This document shows, piece after piece, positions 3,326-3,527 of a stretch of DNA of 4,041 bases. Source of the stretch: a virus (lineage: Duplodnaviria; Heunggongvirae; Uroviricota; Caudoviricetes); IMG/VR virus record IMGVR_UViG_2663762839_000013, positions 1 through 4,041 of that record. One strand, given 5' to 3'. Positions within the stretch are counted from its first letter, which is position 1. Each line of letters opens with the position of its first letter. The notes beneath the pieces are model-generated. The model was not told the origin of the DNA and ran no database searches. It worked only from the letters and a program-made list of their open reading frames with translations. The position numbers and the translations under genes were made by a program.

Positions 3326-3389
3326 TGGCGCGTTGTACTGGATTCGAACCAGTGACCGATTGCTTAGAAGGCAATTGCTCTGTCCGGCC
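3326..3389 (-). tRNA. tRNA-Arg (anticodon UCU), 3' portion only (D-loop through CCA); 5' acceptor and D-stem strand not present
   Basis: Minus strand reads GAGC-A-ATTGC-CUUCUAA-GCAAU-CGGUC-ACUGG-UUCGAAU-CCAGU-ACAACGC-G-CCA. The anticodon stem (5 bp) and loop give anticodon UCU; the T-arm carries the canonical GGTTCGAATCC; CCA is encoded. The 5' acceptor strand that would be needed (GCGTTGT) and a D-stem partner (GCTC) are absent upstream, so the gene appears truncated near 3385-3397. Confidence 0.6.
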
Positions 3390-3397
3390 CTGTCGCG

Positions 3398-3527
3398 GAA
3401 CGTGTGGTAGGCCATATTTGCATCTCCGGCCCTAGCCTGATGAGCGGTTACTTTGGCGACCAGGTTTCACAAGACGAGATTGCCGCGACGGGCTGGTTAG
3501 ACACCGGGGACCTCGGTTATCTGCTGC
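3398..3527 (+). pseudogene. Internal fragment of an AMP-dependent synthetase/ligase (adenylate-forming enzyme) gene
   Basis: Plus-frame translation ERVVGHICISGPSLMSGYFGDQVSQDEIAATGWLDTGDLGYLL contains the characteristic G-x-x-G-Y-...-G-W-x-x-T-G-D-L-G motif region of acyl/aryl-AMP ligases. There is no start context, and the reading frame loses family resemblance after about 3527. Confidence 0.45.

Follow-up and report, generated by a model that had tools for sequence, protein, structure and literature searches.

Results and Discussion

The stretch of DNA that was analyzed (in the following, the window; 4,041 bp in total) carries a truncated copy of a phage tRNA-Arg(UCU) gene of the argO type. 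This remnant is located at positions 3326–3388 on the minus strand and consists of the 3' 63 nt of the gene, corresponding to tRNA positions 15–77, and it is in all probability a pseudogene. The cut within the tRNA gene appears to be a non-homologous joint to a chain of four short pieces of Escherichia coli genes which stand in mixed orientation. Taken jointly, the identity of the remnant, its pseudogene status, the non-homologous nature of the junction and the rejection of an integrase attachment (att) core are assigned with high confidence. A truncated tRNA pseudogene that marks a breakpoint is a known kind of element, and the adjoining patchwork of chromosomal fragments is the only potentially notable aspect of this DNA.

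Identity and Extent of the tRNA-Arg(UCU) Remnant

The window was compared with phage Nil3 (L001) and with loci from public assemblies that encode the exact 641-amino-acid NanS-p-type protein (L002–L009). Megablast of the region against phage records yielded Nil3 (AM051322) with 99.2% identity, and a tRNA-Arg feature is annotated beneath the match. Over tRNA positions 15–77 the remnant is identical to the tRNA-Arg(UCU) gene of Nil3 (L001 1487–1563) at 63 of 63 positions. The same result was obtained for L002–L004. Such an agreement with intact phage copies is far beyond chance and substantiates the preliminary description of this DNA, in which the 3' part of a tRNA-Arg(UCU) gene of about 60 nt had been recognized. 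The alignment to phage and host tRNA genes that had been proposed there was carried out as well. It assigns the remnant to the phage gene, since the host gene argU of strain K-12 agrees at only 45 of the 63 positions and differs throughout the anticodon stem, the T stem and the acceptor. The counterpart gene in the record of phage Lahn2 (AM072972) is annotated as argO.

Read 5' to 3' on the minus strand, i.e., from position 3388 to position 3326, the sequence of the remnant is GCCGGACAGAGCAATTGCCTTCTAAGCAATCGGTCACTGGTTCGAATCCAGTACAACGCGCCA. It comprises the D-loop, the 3' strand of the D-stem, the anticodon arm with the anticodon UCU, the variable loop and the T-arm. These are followed by the 3' acceptor strand ACAACGC, the discriminator base G and an encoded CCA, the A of which is position 3326. 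The Rfam alignment and the alignment to the intact copies both revealed that the anticodon arm, the T arm with its GTTCGAATC loop and the 3' CCA are all present. The tRNA model RF00005 of Rfam matched the remnant over model positions 9–63 of 71 with 27.5 bits (E = 0.0099), compared to a gathering score of 29.

When the Nil3 sequence was aligned with the minus strand of the window, the two were identical from tRNA position 15 to the CCA end, through the terminator and beyond. The similarity 5' of position 15 amounted to noise. Relative to L002–L004 the break was observed at the same tRNA position. The cut had previously been placed inside the D-arm, which is correct and can now be refined to the D-loop, with tRNA position 15 as the first one retained. 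In the alignment with the intact copies positions 1–14 are missing, in line with the earlier statement that the 5' acceptor strand has been replaced by other sequence. The span of 3326–3400 that had been given for the tRNA holds for 3326–3388, with the minus strand as the coding strand; positions 3389–3400 are already part of a piece from a fatty acyl-AMP ligase gene.

The remnant had also been suspected to derive from the rare-codon tRNA cluster found 5' of the stx/nanS locus in lambdoid phages of the Stx type. The 63/63 identity and the collinear 3' side confirm this origin. Sequence identity and downstream synteny with the argO-type gene are both observed and upstream synteny is lost. In Stx-type lambdoid phages this tRNA cluster is called ileZ-argN-argO. 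In the literature searched, these gene names gave no match, and only a general statement on three tRNAs near stx2a was obtained: two tRNA-Arg genes and one tRNA-Met gene adjoin stx2a in Stx2 phages (PMC7946995). Compared to the argO-type tRNA-Arg(UCU) gene of Nil3 and Lahn2, the 63 kept positions are identical, and they are followed by the same terminator, STnc100 element and nanS-p gene. In contrast, the window lacks the first 14 nt of the gene, the neighboring tRNAs and Q, and its module contains no stx genes.

The Phage Module 3' of the Remnant

Directly after the CCA end follows the intrinsic terminator of the tRNA cluster (3287–3311, minus strand). It is composed of a stem-loop at 3311–3294 and a T run at 3293–3287. 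The terminator scan revealed 7 pairs, 5 of which are G-C, a loop of 4 and the T tail, so that the strong terminator noted earlier behind the tRNA was indeed found. The element is conserved in Nil3 and L002–L004. Its 3' stem arm carries a 1-bp deletion in the window (GCGGGC compared to GCGGGCC in Nil3 and L002–L004).

Between this terminator and nanS-p an element of the STnc100 sRNA family is located (3060–3250, minus strand), which is a member of the conserved phage module. It was detected in full length by the Rfam model RF02076 with 139.2 bits (gathering score 47, E = 8e-32) and closes with a terminator-like hairpin of its own at 3090–3071. The next gene of the phage late operon is an intact nanS-p-type gene (913–2838, minus strand). 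According to the open reading frame list and Pfam it encodes a protein of 641 amino acids with a DUF1737 domain, a SASA esterase domain and a DUF6645 domain. Public assemblies contain exactly this protein in 80 recorded blocks. The gene is whole although the surrounding Q and lysis genes have been destroyed.

Positions 211–3388 of the window are 99.8% identical to L003. Apart from the deletion in the terminator, the remaining differences to L003 in this range are all intergenic, and two of them are common to Nil3. The part of the window that is collinear with intact prophages, at 99.8–100% identity, covers the rest of the tRNA, the terminator, the STnc100 element, nanS-p, a ydfR-like gene and a DUF826 gene.

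In lambdoid phages of the Stx type the tRNA-Arg(UCU) gene is situated between the gene of the late antiterminator Q and the stx, nanS-p and lysis genes. The gene order of the intact relatives is Q, methyltransferase (in part of the cases), tRNA(CAU), tRNA-Arg(UCG), tRNA-Arg(UCU), terminator, STnc100 and nanS-p. The arrangement of Q, methyltransferase, three tRNAs, nanS-p and lysis genes was found in L002–L004 and L007–L009. The lambdoid late region of L002–L009 contains NinE, RusA, Q, a DNA methyltransferase, the three tRNAs, nanS-p, DUF1378 and DUF826, and continues from DUF826 with holin, DUF1327, lysozyme, Rz and terminase. The Nil3 record lists Q, the late terminator tR', one tRNA-Ile and two tRNA-Arg genes, and ARAGORN called tRNA(CAU), tRNA-Arg(UCG) and tRNA-Arg(UCU) in this phage. 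The first tRNA of the cluster (L001 1314–1389) is a tRNA-Ile in the Nil3 record and a tRNA-Met (CAU) according to ARAGORN. This conflict reflects the usual ambiguity for a lysidine-modified tRNA-Ile2 of the ileZ type. Measured against this arrangement, the window has lost the 5' acceptor strand and the 5' D-stem strand of the tRNA-Arg(UCU) gene, the two other tRNAs, the methyltransferase and Q, all of which would lie 5' of the cut.

Pseudogene Status of the Remnant

The 14 absent nucleotides are the 5' acceptor strand GCGTTGT, positions 8–9, the 5' D-stem strand GCTC and A14. Without them the RNA cannot form the acceptor stem or the D stem. ARAGORN found no tRNA over the 4,041 bp of the window. 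In control runs the program called all three tRNAs in Nil3 and in each of the related loci used as controls. The 77-nt stretch which now occupies the place of the tRNA was folded, and the 3' acceptor strand ACAACGC remained unpaired in the MFE structure as well as in the centroid structure. The fold was no better than that of shuffled sequences (z = +0.21). The intact tRNA of Nil3 folded with an acceptor stem of 7 bp and a z-score of -2.0.

Consequently, an acceptor stem (positions 1–7 paired with 66–72) is missing in the remnant. In the D arm (stem 10–13/22–25) the 5' strand GCTC has been replaced, and Rfam aligned at most two pairs. Neither the tRNA finder nor the Rfam threshold recognizes the remnant as a tRNA, with no call by ARAGORN and a score of 27.5 for RF00005 against the required 29. 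The native promoter region of the tRNA is gone, and the only promoter-like site found upstream is at chance level.

RNase P and arginyl-tRNA synthetase are both known to require an acceptor helix, from which we infer that no functional tRNA can arise from this DNA. An RNA transcribed from the remnant would neither be processed by RNase P nor be charged, which makes the remnant a pseudogene. A functional but unusual tRNA or tRNA-like RNA, in which the upstream sequence serves as a substitute acceptor strand, has a negligible probability. The intact anticodon arm, T-arm, CCA and terminator would suit such an RNA; however, ARAGORN calls none, ACAACGC stays unpaired in a fold with a z-score of +0.21, the D stem is reduced to at most two pairs and the native promoter region has been lost. 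The preliminary description had named a complete cloverleaf with a paired acceptor stem as the observation that would overturn the idea of a truncated gene. No such cloverleaf folds, and none was reported by ARAGORN.

Comparison with Attachment Sites in tRNA Genes

Integrases that target tRNA genes leave retained 3' parts of the tRNA behind. The remnant had, as an alternative, been considered to be such an att core, in which the 3' part of a tRNA gene is duplicated at the border of the element that has integrated. It is in fact situated where phage-like DNA meets host-like DNA, and prophage DLP12 of K-12 starts inside argU according to its annotation. Nevertheless, we regard an att core as very improbable. 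The remnant matches an internal phage gene (63/63) and not the host gene argU (45/63). In all intact relatives this gene is found in the middle of the phage between Q and nanS-p, and late genes adjoin the remnant. The host-like side is made up of fragments of four unlinked genes without a tRNA locus. Moreover, the 3' end of the remnant runs into phage DNA, but the 3' end of an att core would be expected next to host DNA. The visible ends of related prophages (L002, L005 and L006) are found at argW (CCU), far from this tRNA gene.

The open reading frame list of the window contains no integrase. A matching direct repeat of the tRNA 3' end, which had been suggested as an att partner, was not detected: the 63-nt segment has no repeat within the 4,041 bp of the window. 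The att reading was abandoned on the grounds of sequence, of position and of the missing repeat within the window. The window shares with att duplications of the type of DLP12 at argU the presence of a partial tRNA-Arg(UCU) at a phage/host boundary. Prophage att duplications differ in that they copy the 3' end of a host tRNA, mark the edge of the prophage next to the integrase and form a pair of direct repeats, none of which is seen within the window.

Prophage remnants with the identical NanS-p protein end at a tRNA-Arg(CCU) gene (argW) in L002 (12975–13049), L005 (8633–8707) and L006 (7763–7837). These ends follow a truncated Nu1 terminase gene and lie beside a gene of the formate/nitrite transporter family. 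It is therefore likely that argW is the true attachment site of this type of prophage. In strain 14EC033, which carries a fatty acyl-AMP ligase allele 100% identical to that of the window, the prophage was not found in the argW region; an IS-rich island is located there instead.

Breakpoint J1 and the Chromosomal Patchwork

The breakpoint J1, at which prophage homology gives way to a chromosomal patchwork, was mapped by base-by-base projection to 3388|3389 with an overlap of 0 bp. Among 5,426 complete E. coli genomes, every match to the prophage part ends at position 3388. That a junction is marked here, as had been proposed, is thus confirmed and its exact site is known.

Four pieces of chromosomal genes follow. 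The fragment directly beside the remnant (3389–3526, plus strand) is an internal part of a fatty acyl-AMP ligase gene, a gene which adjoins yghO. It has a length of 138 bp, lies in sense orientation and matches five genomes, among them that of strain 14EC033, with 100% identity. The second fragment (3524–3658, minus strand) comprises 135 bp from the interior of the pitrilysin gene ptrA in antisense orientation and is 100% identical to many E. coli genomes. Ligase and ptrA pieces share 3 bp (CTG). The third fragment (3658–3917, plus strand) is an internal piece of crr, the gene of the PTS component EIIA-Glc, with a length of 260 bp in sense orientation and 99.2% identity. It shows an exact overlap of 1 bp at each end, and its left end extends to 3653 when one mismatch is permitted. 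The fourth fragment (3917–4041, minus strand) is derived from the interior of the polyphosphate kinase gene ppk1 in antisense orientation, is at least 125 bp long and runs off the window. Differences to the native genes inside the pieces are a synonymous one in crr at 3862 and a non-synonymous one in ppk1 at 3989. These two mismatches are too few to tell drift from error.

Starting with the joint between the tRNA and the ligase fragment, the overlaps at the four patchwork joints are 0, 3, 1 and 1 bp. For random blunt joining an overlap of 0.67 bp is expected, and a total of at least 5 bp over four joints has a probability of P = 0.16. The microhomology that characterizes alternative end joining (A-EJ) or microhomology-mediated break-induced replication (MMBIR) is consequently not above chance at these joints. 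Overlaps no larger than chance point to end-to-end joining rather than to site-specific or homologous recombination. The truncation of the tRNA gene would then have been made by end-to-end joining of broken DNA. The ptrA/crr joint is the sole patchwork joint that hints at an extended microhomology, with an imperfect match of 5/6 at 3653–3658 (ATTGTT compared to ATTGCT in native crr).

In strain 14EC033 the donor loci are found at 3.298 Mb (crr), 3.376 Mb (ppk1), 3.689 Mb (ptrA) and 3.867 Mb (ligase). All four donor genes are located within an arc of 569 kb, which corresponds to 12.3% of a chromosome of 4.64 Mb. Four random points fall within such an arc with P = 0.0074. A donor from the laboratory strains K-12 or B is unlikely, judging from the ligase fragment, which was found at at least 99% identity in 6 of the 5,426 genomes; the six listed are wild isolates.

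The 756-bp Deletion in the Lysis Region

A second lesion was detected near the other end of the window. Relative to L003 a stretch of 756 bp is deleted, and the joint J0 (211–216) lies on the 6-bp repeat ATACCC (plus strand). The deletion takes the holin gene from its start codon, the DUF1327 gene and the lysozyme gene up to about codon 46, i.e., about 45 codons of the latter. With these losses the lysis cassette is dead. An overlap of at least 6 bp arises by chance with P = 0.0013; of the joints, only J0 shows microhomology above the chance expectation. As one piece, J0 was absent from the 5,426 complete E. coli genomes, and a 39-mer across it was absent from the IMG/VR viral contigs. The window is a prophage late region in which nanS-p and STnc100 have been kept, and from which Q, two-and-a-bit tRNAs, the holin and the first part of the lysozyme gene are gone.

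Search for the Junctions in Other Sequences

Exact k-mers were scanned across four of the five junctions, namely J0, J1, J2 and J4, where J1–J4 denote the patchwork joints. The collections were the species-representative genomes (J1 and J4), the JGI metagenome contigs (J1 and J2) and the IMG/VR viral contigs (J1 and J0). In these one to three collections per junction no match to J0, J1, J2 or J4 was obtained. For J1 a 41-mer and a 34-mer were both absent from all three collections. A control with the intact sequence over the breakpoint (tRNA positions 8–48) was positive in at least 120 viral contigs. In the IMG/VR viral contigs the remnant sequence was never preceded by any base but the native A14. 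Position 14/15 was rejected as a recurrent site-specific break, since no IMG/VR contig breaks there.

None of the five junctions was present in one piece in the 5,426 complete E. coli genomes. Plasmid and phage records, searched by BLAST with the patchwork as query, gave single native genes only. Open reading frames that span the junctions, including the versions with a start at M and with alternative starts, were not on record in an index of 153 billion genes.

Origin of the Patchwork

We slightly favor a chimeric origin, either at the level of the molecule, the read or the assembly or by construction, so that the sequence would not represent a stable chromosomal locus. Five unique junctions within 4 kb and overlaps that resemble those of ligation are in favor of this view, as is the nature of the pieces, 125–260 bp of housekeeping genes which must also exist intact elsewhere. 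Furthermore, E. coli is not known to possess classical NHEJ of the Ku/LigD type. However, the clustering of the donors within 569 kb (P = 0.0074) would not be expected from ligation in vitro or splicing in silico at random. The nearby 756-bp deletion with its 6-bp microhomology (P = 0.0013) is typical of an in vivo deletion, and the phage part contains natural polymorphisms which are common to Nil3. A mis-join in a de Bruijn graph would need longer overlaps than the 0–6 bp observed, so that any artefact would have to be at the level of the molecule or the read. Finally, the lack of database matches says little if the databases do not contain the source strain, and draft genomes of E. coli and Shigella were reached via exact-protein look-ups only.

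That an E. coli prophage was genuinely rearranged in vivo, through end joining or through serial template switching of the MMBIR/FoSTeS kind, is possible but doubtful. In this case a break in the late region 5' of nanS-p would have been followed by copying of short stretches from the same chromosomal neighborhood. Q and the tRNA cluster would have been destroyed in this way, and a separate microhomology deletion would have killed the lysis cassette. The location of the donors within the 569-kb arc fits such an event, and the short pieces in mixed orientation look like template-switch scars. The deletion on a 6-bp repeat and the loss of Q, holin and lysozyme, which gives the look of a domesticated non-lytic prophage remnant, agree with it as well. 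This type of prophage abuts argW/yfdC in L002, L005 and L006, a site about 70 kb from crr on the K-12 map, and natural prophages do break within this tRNA gene, as in L005. On the other hand, template switching and the alternative end joining of E. coli characteristically use microhomology, but at the four patchwork joints it is not above chance. The four scanned junctions were found in none of the collections scanned, none of the five is in one piece in the 5,426 genomes, and the capture of four pieces is not known from natural isolates of E. coli. The specific scenario of a real scar in a wild E. coli, with a break in the late region and multi-step template switching or fragment capture from four stretches within about 570 kb, is considered rather unlikely. 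We assign a small probability to other settings, such as the joining of E. coli DNA within a different host.

Among more specific artefacts, an origin from 3C/Hi-C or from restriction and ligation is argued against by inspection of the joints by eye, where no shared site (GATC, CCGG or similar) was seen. A short-read de Bruijn mis-join is unlikely with partners that share 0–6 bp per joint. Short distant pieces in mixed orientation with overlaps of 0–3 bp are features which the patchwork has in common with E. coli A-EJ, MMBIR/FoSTeS, library ligation chimeras and transgene concatemers. It differs from the microhomology-driven mechanisms among these, for which microhomology is typical, in that none above chance is present at its joints. 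Transgene concatenation has been treated elsewhere (PMC8701086).

For annotation, the remnant should be called neither a tRNA nor an att site. On its own it adds a further example of a truncated phage tRNA gene and provides an exact marker (3388|3389) of the end of the authentic prophage. With five junctions in 4 kb, four of which were scanned and found absent from other public sequence, it also has value as a warning: inferences from positions 3389–4041 or from the local gene order need confirmation at read level first. If real, the patchwork would document multi-fragment non-homologous repair in natural E. coli with donors from one neighborhood, and would bear on the disarming of prophages and on break repair without homology in E. 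coli. An in vivo scar would represent a bacterial counterpart of eukaryotic chromoanasynthesis-like rearrangements, preserved in a domesticated prophage.

A Reciprocal Truncation in a Natural Prophage

L005 (GCA_965180465.1, CBCYCD010000019.1) harbors a reciprocal natural truncation at 529–570, in which the 5' 42 nt of the tRNA-Arg(UCU) gene are kept. Beyond these 42 nt follows another phage module, which contains a DUF3927 open reading frame. The tRNA-Arg(UCU) gene thus serves as a mosaic boundary in natural prophages. L005 resembles the window in this boundary, in its prophage with the identical NanS-p protein and in the lack of a detectable tRNA. It differs from the window in that the 5' part of the gene is kept and joined to another phage module, which is ordinary mosaicism, whereas the window combines the 3' 63 nt with fragments of host genes. 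L005 additionally contains a second copy of the STnc100 element (738–965) with 72% identity.
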